Origin: Escherichia coli O127:H6 str. E2348/69
Lineage (GTDB): Bacteria; Pseudomonadota; Gammaproteobacteria; Enterobacterales; Enterobacteriaceae
NCBI RefSeq assembly: GCF_000026545.1
Contig: NC_011601.1
Reading direction: 5' to 3' (one strand)
Length of the DNA stretch: 64,000 nucleotides
Translations under genes and position numbers: made by a program
The notes under the pieces: generated by a model
The model's database searches: none
The model's input: the letters and a program-made list of their open reading frames with translations, nothing else
What the model was told of the DNA's origin: nothing
In this document: positions 5,512-53,422 of the stretch, in pieces
How positions within the stretch are numbered: the first letter of the stretch is position 1
How the letters are laid out: every line of letters begins with the position of its first letter

Positions 5512-5790
5512 TTACTGCTGTGACGCCTGCTGAAACAGGTTTTCCCACATATCGGTCACCAGCGCCTGGTCACGCGGCGACAATTCACCGGCACCAATAG
5601 CTTTTTCCAGACTCTGGCTAACGGTTGTATGTACCGCCTGGGCGGAGTGGTCATCACCACTTTCCAGTTCTGCGATGGCTAATGTCAGGTGGCCACGCAA
5701 ATACCCACTGGCAAACAACTCATCATCACTGGCATGGTCAACCATACCGTCGATTAATGCCAGAATGCGTGATTCAAACTCCGCGATCAT
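5512..5790 (-). CDS. yfcL: Uncharacterised protein YfcL
   Basis: 92 aa ORF in conserved position downstream of mnmC. Confidence 0.8.
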
Positions 5791-5823
5791 CTTCTTTCCT
5801 CATTGTAAAACGTGGCGCTGGCT

Positions 5824-6372
5824 TCAGTTGAGCGCTTCCGGCCACGGGAACTGTTCCGCCGTAAGTTCCGGCGTGTGATAATAATTTTGTAGTGCTTTAA
5901 TGAAGCGTGCCGGACGTTCGGGAATGCCGTTTGCCAGATAATCCATCACCTGCGCATGTACCCGCCGTTGAAACACCACGCGGTCCGGTTCGAAATCCCC
6001 TTCCAGATTGTCGCAGCTAACATTAAACGGATATCCCGCCGCCACGCAGAACAACCAGTCCAGCGCCTGCGGCTTCACTTCAACATCTTCAAACTGGCTT
6101 TGCGTCTGGGCATCGCGTCCGTCCGGGCAATACCAGTAGCCGAAATCAACCAACTCACGGCGCGCTTTCCCGGCAATACACCAGTGCGAAATCTCGTGGA
6201 TGGCGCTGGCATAAAAGCCATGAGCGAAGACGATTCTGTTATACGGTACTTCCGCATCAGCAGGAAGATAGATCGGTTCGTCGTCGCCTTTAATCAGACG
6301 GGTATTAAATTCATCGGCAAAGCAGCTATTAAAAATCTCAATCAACTGCTCATAGTGGTGTGTACTGTTCAT
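5824..6372 (-). CDS. epmC: EF-P hydroxylase EpmC (YfcM)
   Basis: 182 aa ORF, conserved position and size. Confidence 0.8.
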   Translation of the reverse strand: MNSTHHYEQLIEIFNSCFADEFNTRLIKGDDEPIYLPADAEVPYNRIVFAHGFYASAIHEISHWCIAGKARRELVDFGYWYCPDGRDAQTQSQFEDVEVKPQALDWLFCVAAGYPFNVSCDNLEGDFEPDRVVFQRRVHAQVMDYLANGIPERPARFIKALQNYYHTPELTAEQFPWPEALN

Positions 6373-7181
6373 TAGTTCATCGCCAACCAGTGGAGGATCT
6401 CCTGTCCATGGCTATCGTAAAGTAATTTGGCACTCATCACCGCCGAGACGATAACGATCATCGGGCGGATCAGCTTTTGTCCTTTGCTCAACACCAGTCT
6501 TGAACCCATGCGCGCGCCGAGGAACTGCCCCACCAGCATCACAAAGCCCGTCGCCCAAATCACTTTGCCGCCGAGAATAAACAGCAGCAGACCGCCAATG
6601 TTTGACGTTGCGTTAAGTAATTTGGCGTGAGCAGTGGCTTTGGCGAGATTAAACCCGCACAGCGTAACGAACGCTAACGCGTAAAACGATCCGGCAGCCG
6701 GACCAAAGAATCCATCGTAAAAACCGACGCAACCACCTGCAATTAACGCGAAGGGTAAACCGTACATCCGACGCTGGCGATCTTCTTCTCCCAGTTTGGG
6801 CATCAGCAAGAAATAGAGGCCGATACAAATCACCAGAATAGGCAAAATCTGCCGTAAGACATCAGCCTGAACGTATTGCACCAGCAGTGCGCCACTCATT
6901 GAGCCGACAAAAGTCATGGCGATATTGAGTTTTTGATCGCTTAAACTAACCACTTTACGGCGAATAAAGTAGATAGTGGCGGAAATAGAGCCACCACAGG
7001 CTTGCAGTTTATTGGTTGCCAGCGCGTTAGCGGGAGACATCCCCGCCGCCATCAATGCCGGAATGGTGAGTAACCCTCCGCCACCGGCAATCGAGTCGAT
7101 AAATCCCGCCAGCATGGCGACAAAAAAGAGAACTCCCAGCAGCAGCGGGGAAACCATAAACAGGCTATTAAACGTTTCCAT
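6372..7181 (-). CDS. yfcA: TSUP family inner membrane transporter YfcA
   Basis: 269 aa polytopic membrane protein with internal repeat of Gly-rich TM segments. Confidence 0.8.
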   Translation of the reverse strand: METFNSLFMVSPLLLGVLFFVAMLAGFIDSIAGGGGLLTIPALMAAGMSPANALATNKLQACGGSISATIYFIRRKVVSLSDQKLNIAMTFVGSMSGALLVQYVQADVLRQILPILVICIGLYFLLMPKLGEEDRQRRMYGLPFALIAGGCVGFYDGFFGPAAGSFYALAFVTLCGFNLAKATAHAKLLNATSNIGGLLLFILGGKVIWATGFVMLVGQFLGARMGSRLVLSKGQKLIRPMIVIVSAVMSAKLLYDSHGQEILHWLAMN

Positions 7182-45287: not shown

Positions 45288-46061
45288 TCAGGCGAGATAA
45301 GAATGAGGGTTGGGGAAGACGATTTCTTTGTAACAGCGGCAGTTCGGCAGCTCACCAGCGTGACCGGTCATACCGTCAAGCGTTGGAGGTCGGCCCCATT
45401 CGACAAACTTACCTTCCATCTCCCGATGAGAATGCCGGACGTCGCCATCTTCGGCTGTACGCCAGATATAACCATTCGAGCCGATTGACAGCGCACGCGC
45501 CTGATCGAGCGCGCCGGTTGCGCGTCCAAGCTCGGTACGGGCGATAAGGTTCGCTCGTGAGCGTGACACGTCACCGGACGCAGCTATCTCTTTCGCGAAT
45601 GGCTCAGCGCGGCCACCAGTCACAACGGCCTCGATGGCTTTGTTCTGAATGTCATACACCCGATCGGCGGCCTCAAGAGGTAGCGATTTGATGTACTTAA
45701 TCTGCTCGGCAACGATGGATTTCATCACCTGGCCTACCGGGGCGCGGTCAACCATGTTGCGCAGCTCTGCACTGATGTTCCGGCTGTGCTGACGCCACTG
45801 CTTTTCATTCTGGCGCGCAATGTCGGCGGTAAAGTTCTCAGCAACCTTCGTCGCCCAGGGGGTGATGATTTCGCTGTAGCGCTCCAGCGCATCCATGATT
45901 TCGGTGACGCTATCGTTTGAACCATCGTAGCGCCTATTTACGATATCCCCGACCGCCCGCGCTATCTGCCGTAGGCTCGTTCGATATCGGATCTCCGCCT
46001 GGCGACTCTGGCGGGTTGTCGCCAAGTTCGCCGATGCCTGGCGGCGCTTCGTCTTCGGCAT
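45288..46061 (-). CDS. Head morphogenesis protein (Mu F-like); start uncertain
   Basis: ORF track start 46061 overlaps the portal 3' end by 128 nt; a downstream Met (about 45896) is an alternative start. Confidence 0.55.
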   Translation of the reverse strand: MPKTKRRQASANLATTRQSRQAEIRYRTSLRQIARAVGDIVNRRYDGSNDSVTEIMDALERYSEIITPWATKVAENFTADIARQNEKQWRQHSRNISAELRNMVDRAPVGQVMKSIVAEQIKYIKSLPLEAADRVYDIQNKAIEAVVTGGRAEPFAKEIAASGDVSRSRANLIARTELGRATGALDQARALSIGSNGYIWRTAEDGDVRHSHREMEGKFVEWGRPPTLDGMTGHAGELPNCRCYKEIVFPNPHSYLA

Positions 46062-47379
46062 TCTCTATGTCCTCGTCGGTAATGGATGCCCCGATGCCGG
46101 TGACGTCAGAGTTTTCGCGCAGGTCGGTCATTGCCGCCTTACGCGTCATCAATCCGTCGCCCAGCGCGGTGCTGATCGCGTTGGTGGTGTTTACGGCCAC
46201 CGTTGAGCGGTCAACGTCAGACATTTGCCATAGCGGGTTAAACTCAAACGTGAAATCGTCCGGCAGTGGCTTACCGAGTTCCGAGCGGTGCATAATGTCC
46301 AGTATCCGGCGCATCGGCAGCCGTAAGCGGCGCTCCTGCAATGAGCTCACCCGGTCGTAATAGTTGGCAAGATCTGCATCACCGGTAGAAAATCCTTTCG
46401 GGGACTGTCCGAACAACCGCACCAGTGGAATACCAACAGCGCCACTAATCTGTTCTGCAAACTGCGATAGGATGTCATCCAGACCACTGAAGCTGTACTG
46501 ATGCGTTTCAAACTTATCCCGCGAGTCCATGAGCGTCATGCCTTCATTGCTCTGGAACTGTCGAATCAGGTCGATATTCTTCAGCAACGCTTCATACGCA
46601 GGACCACCAAGTGCGATAAGCTCGCGTAGCTTCTCCACGCTGTAGGTACGCAAATGCGCTTTGTAGACCAGCTGCGCCGCGCCGACAGTGGCGCTGTCGA
46701 ACGCAGTAAGCCGATCCCAGATACGCTCTACAACCGACATTCCCCATTCGTTTTCGGTCATCTTCTGCTGGAATGGCAGCGTCACCCCGTCGAAGCGAAT
46801 CAGGCGGCTGTGATGGATGCGCCAGGCTGGAATGCCCGTGGCAGTGGTCACCACGTCGTAAAACTCAGGTTTGCCGAGATCCGGCCCCATCTCTTTAATG
46901 CGGCGGGTCAGGACCGGGTTAATCATCCAGCGGTCGAGCGGGAGAATGCCCTTAAACTTGCCTTCTCCAATGGTTTCGAGCCGCAGCGGGGTCATTGGTG
47001 CCTGCCCCTCGATCATGATGAAGCCGACCGCGCCGCCGTAGAGGCGCGACCATTTCAGCACGTCGTTCAGCGCATCCCAGATCTGCAACTCATCCAGCTG
47101 CGCTTCCAGGGTGCCACGGTCTTTGGCGTCAATCTCCGAAGTGATGCGAATGCCTTTCCGGGTCATATCGTCCGGGATAGCGTCGACCGCTTCGCCGATG
47201 ATCCAGGACGAACGATAGGACCATTCCACCAGCATGCGGTTGCGGCTGGTGAAGTTAGCCCGGTAGGTCGATGCTGAGTGCTGGTTAGGCGTCTGTATCC
47301 CTACGCGGGCAATAAAATTCTCATAACCATCAGCTGTGGCCTGCGCAGTTCGCCGCAGGGCTTGTTTGTTTCGTGCCAT
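45934..47379 (-). CDS. Portal protein
   Basis: 481 aa, immediately downstream of terminase large subunit (1-nt overlap). Confidence 0.7.
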   Translation of the reverse strand: MARNKQALRRTAQATADGYENFIARVGIQTPNQHSASTYRANFTSRNRMLVEWSYRSSWIIGEAVDAIPDDMTRKGIRITSEIDAKDRGTLEAQLDELQIWDALNDVLKWSRLYGGAVGFIMIEGQAPMTPLRLETIGEGKFKGILPLDRWMINPVLTRRIKEMGPDLGKPEFYDVVTTATGIPAWRIHHSRLIRFDGVTLPFQQKMTENEWGMSVVERIWDRLTAFDSATVGAAQLVYKAHLRTYSVEKLRELIALGGPAYEALLKNIDLIRQFQSNEGMTLMDSRDKFETHQYSFSGLDDILSQFAEQISGAVGIPLVRLFGQSPKGFSTGDADLANYYDRVSSLQERRLRLPMRRILDIMHRSELGKPLPDDFTFEFNPLWQMSDVDRSTVAVNTTNAISTALGDGLMTRKAAMTDLRENSDVTGIGASITDEDIENAEDEAPPGIGELGDNPPESPGGDPISNEPTADSAGGRGYRK

Positions 47380-49001
47380 CAGGCCTGTCTCCCTAGCAGC
47401 TCCCAGATGTTCAGGGCTGAATTCATTGGGGCATAGTTGATCATCACCGAGTCGGCAAGGTTTGGCGATCGGGTTCCATCAGGCTGTTTATCAATAACGA
47501 TTTTTCCCACACCATTAATGGAATAGGTCGGCTGCGAAAGCTCGATGATGAGTTTATCTTTGAGTGCCATGCTACTGCTGATTGAGATGATTTCGTCCGG
47601 GTTGTAAGCCATACCTTCAACCACGGCGCGCCAGGTATTCTGAAAAAGTTTACGTAACCGCCACCAGCTCTGGGCTTTGGCGTTAGCGAAGAAGTCCTTG
47701 TTCAGACGTGCGGCTTGCCCGTTGTCCCCGCGAACAGCTTCATCATCCGGATCAAATACCGCGCCACTACCTCGAAACGGTGTGGCAAGTATTGACGGTC
47801 GACGCGCAGCGTTACGCAGTTCGTTGATAGCGCGTGCATCGCCGCGAACGCCAGCGCCCAGCCCGTCCTCATCAAAGCGAAACTCTTCGAGGTTGTCCTG
47901 TTCGCAAAAGCCGAAAACCTTCTCGACGGACTGATAAATGTCGCTGCCCACACCGGACCATTCCCGCACATTTTCCAGGAGGAAGCCATGACGGGTGGAA
48001 AAGGCATTTTTGTCCCTGCCTTCGTCGGCGACATCCATCGCGCCAAGTCGTTTGCCTGTTGGCTGGATACCCAGTTTGATATGCGCATCAACGGCAGCCT
48101 GTACCCATTCGGATGGAATCAGAACGCCTTCCGCTGATGCGCTGTAGTTCAGATCAAGTTCCTGTGCCACCACCACCGGATTATCGATTTTCTCGCATTC
48201 CCTGCGATACCACTCTTCATCCTTGCGAGGATCATCCCGCCAGTGGAATGTGAATACCGGTATCTTCCCGCCATGACGCTTCTGAGCGAACGGGTTAGCC
48301 ATGCCGTTAACTGAACTCAGGTCGATACGGCAACGCGTCGTTTGTGACAACGCCGCATCAATCAGCAGAGGACGCTGAAGGAATGCAGCCTCATCAACCA
48401 GATAAAGCGTGGTACGGTCACCACGACCAATATTATCGCCAGCCTCGCCTTTGATAACGGCACCAGTTTCAGGAAACTCAACACGCATATATGGCGCGTG
48501 CTTCTTCTCGCTCCACGAACCGCGAAACTCTACAGGTAGCGTTTCCACGAACTTGCGTGCCTTCCAGAACAATGCTTTCGGGTCACCAGTGCTGTCGACG
48601 TATTCCTCTTTACGGGAGCCGAAACCGATAACCATTTCTTTGTTGAAGAGACAAAGCGAGCAGGCCAGTCCGATCGCGGTCCAACTGAGCCCCATTTCAC
48701 GGGATTTTTCGGTAATACCATTCTCCCGATTGCCCCAGCGTTCCATAATCCAGTGGATCCACTCCTCCTGCTTAGGGAAGAGTAAAAACGGAATGGTCAC
48801 CGGCAGGCCATAATCAATATTACGCGGGTCCGTTGTCATGCCCCAGTCGATGATGAACTGAGCCGGATTGGTTCGGTAAAACTGCTTCAATACGGGCAAT
48901 ATTTCAGGATTCTGGCGAATGCGCTGTAGGCGTTCCATCCGCCATTCAAAAACCATCTGGTAATCAGGATGTTTAAAATCGAAGGGGAATGGTAACGGCA
49001 T
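47379..49001 (-). CDS. Terminase large subunit
   Basis: 540 aa; ATPase region and C-terminal nuclease acidic residues; follows the small subunit. Confidence 0.8.
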
Positions 49002-49003
49002 AC

Positions 49004-49555
49004 TTAGCCCATCATTTTTCTATACGCCTCTGCAGCCTGCTCCGGCGTTAAGTTGGTAATTTCTGTTCTGACTGGTCCTCCATCAGCGCCAGTCACTTCA
49101 TTTTTGACGTTGTCTTTAAACGCCTGAACAGAAACATGACGCCCAAGCAACTCAAGGTTTTTAACCTTATCAGGCCATTTGATTTTCTTCAGAAGTGCGG
49201 CGCTATCTGCGGATACCATCTCCACGACATCCATTCCTGATAGCGTTGTGCGCCATACCTTAGGCCAGTCTTTAATGGGCTTTAGCTCACCGTTTTGCAG
49301 GAGAATGTCGAGCACATCCATCTGGTCGATTTCAATAAGGCGATTAAGTACATATTCTGCATTAATACCAACAAGATCATTGCGTTGCGCTTTCAGTTCA
49401 GCGATTCTGAATTGTATGTCAGGTTTTGACAGGTTTTCGGATGCGGTACGGTTAGCTGTCTTTGCGCTGTACCCCGCCCGAATAGCCGCTTGCGTGGCGT
49501 TTAAATCGATGAGGTACTCGCGACAGAACATTTCTTGCTTGTCGGTGAGTGCCAT
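49004..49555 (-). CDS. Terminase small subunit
   Basis: 183 aa, N-terminal HTH-like segment ([30 protein letters not shown]). Confidence 0.75.
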
Positions 49556-49574
49556 TGATATACCTGAGGAAATT

Positions 49575-50123
49575 ATGAAGTTAGAAGATTTCGCAGCTTA
49601 TAACCGCCCTCAATCGAAGGTGTCCGATGAGAGGAAATTTCTTGATTACATTCACAGTCGGAACAGATGGGTTGAGTTTATCAAAAGCATCGATAACGCA
49701 AAGCCAGTATCAATTGCCATGAAAAATTCATTCCATAGTCAATGGGTTGAGTCTGGGGCCTTTATACGTGAAAAGATCAACGACGACTCAATTCTCCTCA
49801 AACTATTAACGCTCTTATTGCCAACATATGATGGTGACAGCCTTGTACTTTATCGGGGGGAAAATAAAGACAGGTTCGATAAAGGGCTCATTGGATTTTG
49901 CTGGACAACGGACATTTCAGTCGCCGAGAAGTTTGGTCGTGGATTGAATGCATACAAATCACCAGGTTTGCTGTTAAGAGCTGAAGCTCCAGCCTGTTCT
50001 ATATTAGCTGGCCCCAATGCCCACAGTCGTTATCTTGGTGAAAATGAGTTCACGGTTAACCCCTCGCGTCTTTCAAACATAACCGTTATTGAAACCTATC
50101 CGGACAACTCTTTTTTCAAATGA
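49575..50123 (+). CDS. Opposite-strand moron protein (182 aa), unknown function
   Basis: Strong RBS TGAGGA 7 nt before ATG 49575; AT-rich; transcribed against the late operon between terS and the lysis genes; ordered motifs YRG ... WTTD ... ENEF. Confidence 0.6.
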   Translation: MKLEDFAAYNRPQSKVSDERKFLDYIHSRNRWVEFIKSIDNAKPVSIAMKNSFHSQWVESGAFIREKINDDSILLKLLTLLLPTYDGDSLVLYRGENKDRFDKGLIGFCWTTDISVAEKFGRGLNAYKSPGLLLRAEAPACSILAGPNAHSRYLGENEFTVNPSRLSNITVIETYPDNSFFK

Positions 50124-50255
50124 TGAATAAATAGATGCCCTATACTTCACCCGCCACTGGTACGCCGTTTCGATGGCCTCCCAGTCCGGTTTTGCCATGA
50201 ATTTTTCCTCTTAGTGACATTATCGAAGCCCCTTATCAAAGGAGCTTCTGTAATG

Positions 50256-50441
50256 TCAGTCCCGAACGAACGTAACCTTCGTGTTTGTCGCTCGCCGTAC
50301 AAGGCGCGCCGCTTCGCGTTGCATTTCATCGATAACTTTTGGCGTCATCGGCTGATGCGCATATTTACGTTCAATCTCTGCAAAAATCCCGTTCATCGTT
50401 TCGCTGTCTGGTGGGATAACTTTAACGTTTAATCGTGCCAT
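50256..50441 (-). CDS. Small hypothetical protein
   Basis: ORF 50256..50468; internal Met MARLNVKV... preferred; weak evidence only. Confidence 0.3.
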   Translation of the reverse strand: MARLNVKVIPPDSETMNGIFAEIERKYAHQPMTPKVIDEMQREAARLVRRATNTKVTFVRD

Positions 50442-50697
50442 TGGTTTGTGCTGCCCTGTTTTTCTCAAAAGCCCTAATATCAGCCTTATCCCTGTTGCAC
50501 TGTGCTAACGCTGACAACAACGCAACATTCAGGTTAAGGCTAGCTCCCCACGTAAACGGGTCGGGTAAATCTGGCTGGGGTGTTTCATCCGTCAGACTGG
50601 CTGGTAACGGAACGACCGGCACCGACACGTATACCGTTCGCGTATTCGTGCAACCGCTTAACTGCGCCAGAAGGAACGATACGAACAGCGCAATCAT
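50422..50697 (-). CDS. Rz1: o-spanin (Rz1-like outer membrane lipoprotein), overlapping Rz
   Basis: Starts in the +1 frame inside Rz; signal peptide with lipobox LSGC; proline-rich mature part. Confidence 0.65.
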   Translation of the reverse strand: MIALFVSFLLAQLSGCTNTRTVYVSVPVVPLPASLTDETPQPDLPDPFTWGASLNLNVALLSALAQCNRDKADIRAFEKNRAAQTNGTIKR

Positions 50698-50977
50698 CAC
50701 CCGAAACAGCCACTTTGATATCTTCCTGGGTTCTCTGTGACTCCAGTGCGATCTGCTGTTTTGCATGCTGGTTAGCCTCTATAACTGTATTGATGATTTG
50801 CAGAGATTGCAGGACGTTACTGGTAATGGCTGTTGCAGATTCAGCATTTCGTACAGCCTCATCAGCACGCTCCTTTTCGTGCTGATATTTGCTGTAGTAA
50901 TGCCCGGCAGACCAGATAAAAGAACCGATGACGGTAACAAAGAAGGCAACAATAACCAGCTTATATCTCAGCTTCAT
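50585..50977 (-). CDS. Rz: i-spanin (Rz-like)
   Basis: 130 aa; N-terminal TM helix then coiled coil; follows the endolysin gene. Confidence 0.7.
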   Translation of the reverse strand: MKLRYKLVIVAFFVTVIGSFIWSAGHYYSKYQHEKERADEAVRNAESATAITSNVLQSLQIINTVIEANQHAKQQIALESQRTQEDIKVAVSGDDCAVRIVPSGAVKRLHEYANGIRVGAGRSVTSQSDG

Positions 50978-51437
50978 TTACCACCCCACCCGCTTCTTTA
51001 AATCGGGCAATCAGGTCACCGATTCTATGTTCATACTGACCGTAACCAGCCCCCGGCAACGAAGCCCAGATATTGCTGCAACGGTCGATTGCCTGACGAA
51101 TATCGCCGCGGTCAATCATCGGTAAAGCGCCACGCTCTTTAATCTGCTGCAGCGCTACAGCATCCTGGCTTTCTGGAGAAAAATCTTTCAGGCCAAGTTG
51201 CTTGCGGTAGGCATCCCACCAGCGTGAAAGAAGCTGGTAGCGACCGGCTGCTGTTGATTTGAGTTTGAGGTTTAGCGTGACAAGTTTGCGAGGGTGATCA
51301 GAGTAATCAGTGAATAGCTCTCCGCCTACAATGACGTCATAACCATGATTTCTGGTTTTCTGCCGTCCGTTATCAGTTCCCTCCGACCACGCCAGCATAT
51401 CGAGGAACGCCTTACGTTGATTATTGATTTCCACCAT
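50961..51437 (-). CDS. R: Endolysin, lambda R-type lytic transglycosylase
   Basis: 158 aa; [24 protein letters not shown]... matches phage lambda R as remembered. Confidence 0.9.
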
Positions 51438-51744
51438 CTTCTACTCCGGCTTTTTTAGCAGCGAAGCGTTTGATAAGCGAACCAATCGAGTCAGTACCGA
51501 TGTAGCCGATGAACACGCTCGTTATATAAGCGAGATTGCTACTTAGTCCGGCGAAGTCGAGAAGGTCACGAATGAACCAGGCGATAATGGCGCACATCGT
51601 TGCGTCGATTACTGTTTTTGTAAACGCACCGCCATTATATCTGCCGCGAAGGTACGCCATTGCAAACGCAAGGATTGCCCCGATGCCTTGTTCCTTTGCC
51701 GCGAGAATGGCGGCTAACAGGTCATGTTTTTCTGGCATCTTCAT
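51421..51744 (-). CDS. S: Holin, lambda S-type
   Basis: 107 aa; [34 protein letters not shown]... matches lambda S107 as remembered, including the dual-start MKM motif. Confidence 0.9.
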
Positions 51745-51986: not shown

Positions 51987-52062
51987 TGGTGCTGGTTAAC
52001 GGACTTGAACCGCTACCCATTCGCTTACAAGGCGACCGCTCTACCATTGGAGCTAAACCAGC
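51987..52062 (-). tRNA. Phage-encoded tRNA-Thr (anticodon UGU)
   Basis: 76-nt cloverleaf on the minus strand: perfect 7-bp acceptor stem GCTGGTT/AACCAGC, D-loop with GG, anticodon loop CTTGTAA, T-loop TTCAAGT, discriminator A, encoded CCA. Confidence 0.8.
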
Positions 52063-52067
52063 ATGTT

Positions 52068-52142
52068 TGGCGGGACAGCGTGGACTCGAACCACGATAAG
52101 AAGGTTAACAGCCTTCCGTAATGACCTTTATACGACTGACCC
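52068..52142 (-). tRNA. Phage-encoded tRNA, probably Asn (anticodon GUU)
   Basis: 75 nt: GGGTCAG...anticodon stem GAAGG/CCTTC, loop CTGTTAA...GGTTCGAGTCC T-arm...CCA; one acceptor and one D-stem mismatch and a 4-nt variable loop. Confidence 0.6.
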
Positions 52143-52196: not shown

Positions 52197-52709
52197 TTAA
52201 ACGGTATGATATTTAATTCTGGCGGCCTCAAAAGCCGCAGCGGCAAGTTCGGCAGTGTCATGGTATCCAAGGTTAATACACTTTCCAGACGCATTAATTC
52301 TTGCTCTCCATTTCCCGTACTTAGCATCCCAAGACACGCCACGGTATCCAGATTTATTATTCTTCTGAATTTTCCTGTTCTGCATATTTTCGGAATGAGT
52401 GACAAGACGAAGATTTGATATCCGGTTATCTGTTCTTACCCTGTTGATGTGATCAATAAAACCATCGGGCATGGTGCCATAAACAATCAACCATGCCAGT
52501 CTGTGAGCAGGGTATGCTTTACCATTAATCATAATCATTAAATACCCATCAGAATTTATTGATGAGCATTTCTTGAAAGCAAAACGAGAGTTCCATGTCA
52601 AAGTGGTCCTCTCTCTCCCCTGCCTCCATCTCCAGTGAAAGTCGCCTGATGATGGATTGTAATCAACAACAGAAAGCACCATTTCTGGCGTTAATTTTAT
52701 TTCTTTCAT
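52197..52709 (-). CDS. HNH homing endonuclease with AP2-like DNA-binding domain
   Basis: 170 aa; HRLAWLIVYG...HINRVRTDNRISNLRLVTHSEN HNH motif, C-terminal YRGVSWD...W AP2-like motif. Confidence 0.75.
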   Translation of the reverse strand: MKEIKLTPEMVLSVVDYNPSSGDFHWRWRQGRERTTLTWNSRFAFKKCSSINSDGYLMIMINGKAYPAHRLAWLIVYGTMPDGFIDHINRVRTDNRISNLRLVTHSENMQNRKIQKNNKSGYRGVSWDAKYGKWRARINASGKCINLGYHDTAELAAAAFEAARIKYHTV

Positions 52710-52903: not shown

Positions 52904-53422
52904 CTAAATGGCTAATTGCATGTCAAGGCTTTTAACAGCAATATGCTTAACTTTCTCAACACGTTTACGCATTTTGAAAGCATTTTTCATTGGTTGGTAC
53001 AAAACAAATAATGACGCTTTCAGGATGTCGTCAATTTCGTTTCTACAGGTTGCCAGTGAAGGTTTTCTCCATCCCTCGCCACCACGTCCACACATCTTGC
53101 GTGGCTTTGCAGTCGCGTGATAGTAGGATGCAATTGCTCGCTTAGATGAACCATGAGCGTAGTAGCTGAGGAGGATGCCAAAGGCTTTCTTGTCAATGTA
53201 CATGACGGAATCGACGACCTGAGAAATCAACATTCCATCATCATCATTGCACATTGGCCTTGTCATAACTCTTCCCGGCTCTACGCTCTCCATGAACTTC
53301 GCTATTACGCTGCTCATGCGCTTTTCCAGACGACCTGAATAAACCCATGCGCCCCACAGTTCAAGCCAGCCATTCAGCCACTCATGCTGTTCTTTGGTGA
53401 GGTTTAGTTCTCTTATGCTCAT
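52904..53422 (-). CDS. Late gene antiterminator Q (QuuD-like family)
   Basis: 172 aa; LELWGAWVYS and CNDDDGMLISQ...LLSYYAHG segments resemble DLP12 QuuD-type antiterminators; last gene of the nin region before tR'. Confidence 0.65.
   Translation of the reverse strand: MSIRELNLTKEQHEWLNGWLELWGAWVYSGRLEKRMSSVIAKFMESVEPGRVMTRPMCNDDDGMLISQVVDSVMYIDKKAFGILLSYYAHGSSKRAIASYYHATAKPRKMCGRGGEGWRKPSLATCRNEIDDILKASLFVLYQPMKNAFKMRKRVEKVKHIAVKSLDMQLAI

Follow-up and report, generated by a model that had tools for sequence, protein, structure and literature searches.

The 64,000-nucleotide window analyzed here, taken from Escherichia coli O127:H6 str. E2348/69 (contig NC_011601.1), carries a prophage in which a small gene is encoded on the plus strand, against the late operon, and head-to-head with terS, the gene for the small terminase subunit. 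The encoded protein fails every sequence-family test but fits the ADP-ribosyltransferases (ARTs) of the R-S-E type at the fold level, and thus represents a new family of a known kind. The explanation favored as a whole, with moderate confidence, is that of a moron cassette of the pid type, named after the gene found in the Salmonella phages P22 and BTP1, with a stand-alone R-S-E ART as its cargo. The features on which this explanation is built are given below.

49575..50123, plus strand: coding sequence of the 182-aa protein with predicted ART fold (from the open reading frame (ORF) list, structural model, alignment, and substitution rates)
49566..49569, plus strand: Shine-Dalgarno sequence GAGG, 5 nt before the ATG of the ART gene, read from the sequence
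49004..49555, minus strand: terS of the Terminase_2 type (phrog_51), head-to-head with the ART gene, with 19 bp between the start codons
49472..49555: highly conserved block covering terS codons 1–28, with a hairpin predicted at 49513–49553 (sequence comparison)
49380..49408, plus strand: predicted weak sigma-70 promoter TTGCGT-N17-GATTCT, inside terS and antisense to about codons 50–59 (by homology)
49415..49574, plus strand: predicted 5' untranslated region (5'UTR), running antisense to the first ~47 codons of terS, start included (pid alignment and folding)
50151..50193, plus strand: hairpin followed by UUUU, a possible weak terminator 28 nt past the stop codon (z = 0.07, not statistically supported)
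50157..50198, minus strand, within ORF 50073–50198: 14-codon fragment MAKPDWEAIETAYQ with its own strong ribosome-binding site, resembling the N-terminus of a different terS family

The ORF and its orientation against the late operon are as described in the initial annotation, and the ribosome-binding site claimed there corresponds to the GAGG motif. The AT-richness it mentioned is genuine but moderate, with a G+C content of 43–45% in the gene versus 50–60% in terL and the portal gene. Some annotations use an in-frame ATG located 22 codons upstream (204-aa form), which leaves the true start slightly ambiguous; the start at 49575 is favored because of the ribosome-binding site, the constant 19–21-bp spacing to terS, and the N-termini of the homologues. 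A CCTGAGG near-palindrome lies in the 19 bp that separate the two starts (49560–49574) and can be read as a Shine-Dalgarno sequence in either direction, with GAGG serving the ART gene and CAGG serving terS.

The ORF is a real gene under purifying selection. Its DNA is 100% identical in 90 of the 5,426 complete E. coli genomes, always on the chromosome and always annotated as ‘hypothetical protein’; the carriers include REL606, BL21, NEB Express/T7 Express, E. coli C, and the enteropathogenic E. coli (EPEC) strain E2348/69 itself. A word-based search retrieves 49 relatives, and a hidden Markov model (HMM) search matches 1,008 cluster representatives (50% identity) at E ≤ 1e-3, of which 679 are retained at E ≤ 1e-10. 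The ratio of non-synonymous to synonymous substitution rates (dN/dS) ranges from 0.13 to 0.31 against relatives of 72–88% identity. Because the gene is identical in so many genomes, matched broadly by profile, and low in dN/dS, a chance ORF is ruled out. The family is spread over phages and integrative elements across Proteobacteria, including the environmental Methylomonas, Ramlibacter, and Desulfobotulus. A profile scan of genome contigs with a 10-sequence alignment yields 16 loci, and no copy of the gene was found among ~50,000 GenBank phage records by megablast and tblastn.

Structure prediction provides the first indication of function. While AlphaFold run on the single sequence gives an unusable model (predicted local distance difference test, pLDDT, of 36.6), the model computed with 41 homologues reaches a pLDDT of 91.6 and a predicted template modeling score (pTM) of 0.83. 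It consists of an N-terminal five-helix domain (residues ~1–81), followed by a strand-helix-strand ART core (~88–176) that contains R94, W110-T111, and E156/E158, and in which the split beta-sheet core that binds nicotinamide adenine dinucleotide (NAD+) in ARTs is found. The AlphaFold and Foldseek check suggested in the initial annotation returned an ART-like fold: all top-50 Foldseek matches in the PDB are ART-fold proteins, albeit with weak statistics (best E = 0.019, TM-scores of ~0.3). Against AFDB50, Foldseek retrieves the family itself, mostly named ‘uncharacterized’, with several members called ‘NAD(+)--protein-arginine ADP-ribosyltransferase’ or ‘ADP ribosyltransferase domain-containing protein’.

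The initial annotation had also drawn attention to three motifs, which are indeed found in the protein (Y93-R94-G95, W110-T111-T112-D113, and E156-N157-E158-F159), with an R-to-T spacing of 17 residues. Their conservation was counted in an alignment of 171 diverse family members. R94, located in the predicted strand 90–97 and within a [Y/F]-R-G-E motif, is present in all of them (171/171), and the following G95 and E96 are conserved at 99% and 91%, respectively. G107 and W110 are both 100% conserved, and position 111 is T or S in 170 of the 171 sequences, at the end of strand 109–111 and before helix 114–122, so that the motif reads G-x-x-W-[T/S] and not S-T-S. H150 (82%) and S151 (79%) precede E156 (95%) and position 158 (E in 81%, Q in 12%), the latter two being placed at the entry to the predicted strand 158–161. 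The N-terminal helical domain has invariant residues of its own, namely W32, W57, R65, and D71. In the model, the motif order and strand placement resemble those of the cholera-toxin-like R / S-T-S / E-x-E triad. The R-S-E hypothesis, initially put forward as a weak one, is thus strengthened by the ART-like predicted fold and by the near-invariance of R, T/S, and E across the 171 sequences. The protein is best described as a predicted ART fold with a plausible catalytic triad, rather than as a demonstrated enzyme. Its N-terminus (MKLEDFAAYNRPQSKVSDERKF) is hydrophilic, with neither a signal peptide nor a lipobox, and the absence of a signal peptide from this hydrophilic end argues for a cytoplasmic protein. 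The enzyme class is likely that of a cytoplasmic, NAD+-dependent R-S-E mono-ADP-ribosyltransferase.

Functional databases and literature add little to this picture. The protein has no match in NCBIfam, PADLOC returns only a chance-level RT_UG26 match, and the PHROGs assignment is phrog_30882, of ‘unknown function’. Nothing specific emerged from literature searches on ART morons of phages or on ARTs with an anti-defence role.

The second line of evidence comes from the locus. In 26 enterobacterial phage and prophage loci, with ART identities from 43% to 100%, the gene always lies 19–21 bp from the start of an opposite-strand terS of the Terminase_2 type, and the terL, portal, and lysis genes vary around this constant pair. 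In these loci, the ART gene is therefore invariably paired, start facing start, with a terS of one and the same family. The terS 5' end is itself unusual: identical codons are used at 73–92% of the identical amino acids in the first 26 codons, versus 33–50% in the rest of the gene. Within this 5' block, 81 nt are 95% identical to the pid 5'UTR of P22, BTP1, and related Salmonella phages, in which pid, an ORFan of opposite orientation, is situated between rha/Rz and the packaging genes. The matching block lies just upstream of pid at these positions.

L062 (BTP1), 636–716
L063 (P22-pbi), 900–980

Once translated, the P22 pid upstream region reveals a pseudogenized terS 5' end, followed by a frameshift and stop codons, and a weaker similarity that extends further upstream, beyond the 81-nt block, spans the mapped pid -35 and -10 elements. 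From this comparison, the pid upstream region, including the mapped promoter and the long 5'UTR, is the dead 5' end of a gene of the terS family that is intact in the window. Since the 81 nt are nearly intact in P22 while the rest has decayed, selection on the block would act through the moron transcript rather than through terS. The word ‘terminase’ was not found in the pid papers searched for it.

The homology with pid also guides the prediction of how the ART gene may be expressed. The pid promoter has been mapped as weak and constitutive, with a -10 element AATCCT at -186 to -181, a transcription start site (TSS) 174 nt before the ATG, and a long 5'UTR (PMC8835761), and pid ranks within the top five genes of the BTP1 prophage by expression level (PMC7067206). 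In the window, TTGCGT (49380–49385)-N17-GATTCT (49403–49408) aligns to TTGCTT-N17-AATCCT of P22/BTP1, from which a TSS is predicted near 49415, with a 5'UTR of ~160 nt. The predicted fold of this leader is more stable than those of shuffled sequences (z = -3.46), and the long hairpin at 49513–49553 is common to the window and BTP1; the block is too close to invariant for a covariation test of this hairpin to be informative. Another candidate promoter, TTGACA-N15-TACGGT (49426–49452), was dropped, as the equivalent P22 fragment is devoid of promoter activity. On these sequence grounds, a pid-like expression of the ART gene is considered reasonably probable.

The interval between the lysis genes and terS seems to accept various cargoes. 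The ART protein and Pid give no BLASTP alignment at E ≤ 100. In the Cronobacter phages, the slot holds a 144-aa gene labelled ‘transcriptional regulator’ (ES2, locus L065, 2607–3041, plus strand) or an unannotated 72-aa ORF (phiES15, locus L064, 2608–2826, plus strand), both beginning 21 bp from the terS start and neither matching any PHROG, and yet another cargo is found in a Shigella element of 41.7 kb, the terS of which is 96% identical. On the other side of the ART gene, the 14-codon fragment MAKPDWEAIETAYQ weakly matches phrog_1206 (E = 0.012), beyond which the frame enters the antisense of the ART gene 3' end. This fragment is probably a scar left by the recombination event through which the ART-terS module was acquired.

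The relatives are also found in other contexts. In high-GC lambdoid phages, the ART homologue lies between a DnaB-type helicase and ParA/endolysin genes, on the same strand, in a nin-like early region; one phage has it in the tail-gene cluster, after the tape-measure gene. In integrative elements, it occurs within runs of small same-strand genes beside the integrase, and in Methylomonas, it is chromosomal. At three distant loci, the upstream genes are unrelated to each other, as judged by inspection of their translations. Clustering of the neighboring ORFs over ~60 loci revealed no recurrent partner, antitoxin, or immunity gene, with terS alone recurring. Because it has no recurrent partner, the gene would work alone, unlike the ART toxins of toxin-antitoxin or Rhs systems.

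Two observations were made in Pantoea prophages. In loci L007/L008, the gene adjoining the ART homologue (5638–5919, minus strand) contains an Acb2/Tad1-hairpin domain. This is a family of anti-CBASS and anti-Thoeris sponges, and its presence next to the ART homologue suggests that the lysis-to-terS interval collects counter-defence genes. In loci L003–L005, the ART gene is followed by a second plus-strand gene (6752–7180) encoding a 142-aa protein that has a hydrophobic helix at its C-terminal end and weakly matches a ‘hemolysin’ PHROG (E = 6e-4), from which the moron slot appears able to hold two cargo genes.

The proposed mechanism combines these elements. A weak constitutive promoter, located within terS and antisense to it, would drive the ART gene through a long, structured 5'UTR, so that lysogens or carrier-state cells would produce the protein, and convergent late transcription would silence the gene during lytic growth. 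The product would move ADP-ribose from NAD+ onto a specific target; for an R-S-E enzyme with an E-x-E motif, the default expectation is an arginine of a protein. This target may be a host or host-defence component, modified to the benefit of the element, either by host reprogramming or by counter-defence, and the protein would not be a suicide toxin. This role is favored because of the missing immunity gene, the co-expression with early, replication, or tail genes in other lineages, and the company of an anti-defence gene, and it can be proposed tentatively only. A broader view, which should be taken as speculative, is that the family forms a new class of immunity-free mobile-element ARTs, in which a single enzyme of the lysogen or carrier state inactivates, by covalent modification, a component of host defence or a protein of a competitor. 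It is just as conjectural that such enzymes would be delivered by a portable promoter and structured 5'UTR embedded in the terS 5' end, with interchangeable cargo (ART, Pid, and others).

Several results weigh against this interpretation. The query protein matches no family of any kind in Pfam-A at E ≤ 10, where the ART families to be expected are ADPrib_exo_Tox, ART, Enterotoxin_a, Pertussis_S1, DarT, RES, and PTS_2-RNA, and 20 longer relatives gave neither a Pfam family nor fused domains at E ≤ 0.1. Sequence searches of the PDB with the single protein, a full-length profile, or a profile of the ART domain only are empty, and a literature search by gene accession returned nothing. The conservation of the glutamates is inverted compared with the classical [Q/E]-x-E motif, as the first is the invariant one and the second is replaced by Q in 12% of the sequences. 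Regarding expression, the predicted promoter is weak (3/6 and 3/6 consensus matches), its -10 element is not kept in several relatives (GATGCG or AATACG, with the final T lost in some), and a sigma-70 consensus scan finds no promoter at the locus, which fits a weak promoter. A terminator scan also finds none at the locus, and no convincing rho-independent terminator follows the ART gene. Finally, the choice between counter-defence, defence, and host reprogramming draws on context only.

The main rival explanation is defence or superinfection exclusion, in which the ART made by the lysogen would modify a component of the incoming phage, or a host factor upon infection (abortive infection). It agrees with a gene that is antisense to the late operon and whose upstream region is homologous to that of the lysogen-expressed pid, and ART toxins such as DarT and CmdT are established defence effectors. 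An intact copy is, moreover, retained in REL606 and BL21 (E. coli B), in a decayed prophage of the lambda attachment region, which in REL606 lies between ybhB and ybhC; nevertheless, this retention is uninformative, since the terS and terL genes of the REL606 remnant have stayed just as intact. The absence of any antitoxin or immunity partner over the ~60 loci and of a PADLOC match argues against defence, as does the co-transcription of the family with early, replication, or tail genes in other phage lineages, which suggests a use in the element’s own infection. Defence is thus regarded as rather unlikely, and the other alternatives as less likely again, in the order in which they follow. The same fold could support another chemistry, whether that of an NAD+ glycohydrolase, of an enzyme whose substrates are NAD-derived signals, of RNA/DNA ADP-ribosylation, or of a Tpt1/KptA-like 2'-phosphotransfer, which is a less probable option than defence.

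The protein might also be a pseudoenzyme with an ART fold, or a small regulator that acts through binding to a host factor, in the way Pid acts on the dgo regulon; this would be in keeping with the slot and upstream region shared with pid, the product of which is a binding regulator. Such a role is improbable, given that R, S/T, and E, the presumed catalytic residues, show little or no variation over the 171 sequences, which is unusual for a pseudoenzyme, and that the protein has no similarity to Pid. A lysogenic-conversion exotoxin acting on eukaryotic cells, like the phage-borne cholera, diphtheria, C3, and LT-II toxins, might be evoked by an R-S-E ART-like fold encoded in a prophage of EPEC E2348/69. 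This reading is very improbable and was rejected: the hydrophilic N-terminus carries no signal peptide, neither a B-subunit nor a secretion partner occurs among the ~60 loci, and the family is present in environmental Proteobacteria (Methylomonas, Ramlibacter, Desulfobotulus), as well as in the laboratory strains E. coli B and C. The pid-type cassette carrying a stand-alone ART remains the favored explanation.

The surrounding late region of the window is arranged as follows.

45934–47379, minus strand: portal gene (PHROG scan)
47379–49001, minus strand: terL (PHROG scan)
50256–50468, minus strand: conserved 70-aa ORF of unknown function (phrog_12811; PHROG scan), overlapping the Rz1 end, between the lysis cassette and the moron slot
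50422–50766, minus strand: Rz1 (PHROG scan)
50585–50977, minus strand: Rz (PHROG scan)
50961–51437, minus strand: endolysin (PHROG scan)
51421–51744, minus strand: holin (PHROG scan)
51987–52142, minus strand: tRNA-Thr (TGT) and tRNA-Asn (GTT) genes, between the Q/HNH region and the holin gene, within the late transcription unit
52197–52709, minus strand: HNH endonuclease of 170 aa (phrog_99), between the Q antiterminator and the tRNA/lysis genes
52904–53422, minus strand: Q antiterminator (PHROG scan)

The position between terS and Rz/Rz1 given in the initial annotation holds, except that the minus-strand ORF of phrog_12811 intervenes. The HNH endonuclease gene is missing in some otherwise identical prophages (e.g., L015 and L021), for which reason it looks like a mobile homing-endonuclease insertion. 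In REL606 (locus L001), a truncated portal gene (6047–6805) is annotated by the Prokaryotic Genome Annotation Pipeline (PGAP) as ‘anti-CBASS protein Acb1 family protein’; its intact homologue in the window is a portal protein according to PHROGs.

ADP-ribosylation is a central chemistry in phage-bacterium conflict, as illustrated by DarT, CmdT, AcrF11, and T4 ModB. The present family adds to it a large group of predicted ARTs (1,008 cluster representatives) for which Pfam, NCBIfam, and PADLOC offer no model and PHROGs no function, and which needs no partner gene. As BL21, REL606, and E. coli C carry the gene, its target and role are directly testable in widely used strains.

Compared with known R-S-E ARTs, the small bacterial ones in particular (the Rhs toxins TreX and TreTu, Vis, C3, and ART2.2), and with the ART-fold anti-CRISPR AcrF11, the predicted fold is alike, with the Arg in the first core strand, the Ser/Thr at the second strand and followed by a helix, and the Glu opening the fifth strand. 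The small core resembles that of C3-, Vis-, and ART2.2-type enzymes, with alignments over 106–111 residues. The window protein differs from them by the lack of sequence-detectable similarity, by W-[T/S] instead of S-T-S, by an invariant first, and not second, Glu, and by the N-terminal helical domain with its own invariant residues. Unlike the Tre toxins, it has no immunity protein. DarTG, ParST, CmdTAC, and RES-Xre likewise have a conserved adjacent antitoxin, immunity, or chaperone gene, whereas none is recurrent at the ~60 loci of the window family.

Phage T4 Alt, ModA, and ModB are cytoplasmic R-S-E ARTs of ~200 aa that modify host proteins and have no immunity gene. The window ART is similarly phage-encoded and immunity-free, and presumably retargets host machinery. 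T4 is, however, a virulent phage in which these enzymes are early or virion proteins, whereas the window gene belongs to a temperate element and is antisense to the late operon, and its product, unlike the T4 enzymes, matches no ART family of Pfam.

In phage lambda, the moron bor lies between Rz/Rz1 and the packaging genes, in the opposite orientation, and encodes a small lipoprotein with a signal sequence. Position and orientation are shared, but the window protein has neither a signal sequence nor a lipobox, and no sequence relationship to bor is to be expected. The bor-equivalent position proposed in the initial annotation is, therefore, valid as a positional analogy only, and the closest analogue of the locus is P22/BTP1 pid, the upstream sequence of which is homologous.

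The pid locus differs from that of the window by its unrelated cargo (86-aa Pid versus the 182-aa ART) and by the state of terS (a dead fragment in P22, intact and functional in the window); in addition, the ART gene is followed by no clear rho-independent terminator. Both loci have an opposite-strand gene between the lysis and packaging genes, 95% identity over 81 nt of the upstream sequence, and a long 5'UTR, predicted in the case of the window (PMC3573128, PMC8835761). This link suggests a reason for the unusually long 5'UTR of pid, which would be a fossil terS 5' end. It also suggests that one terS family comes with a moron slot open to repeated use.
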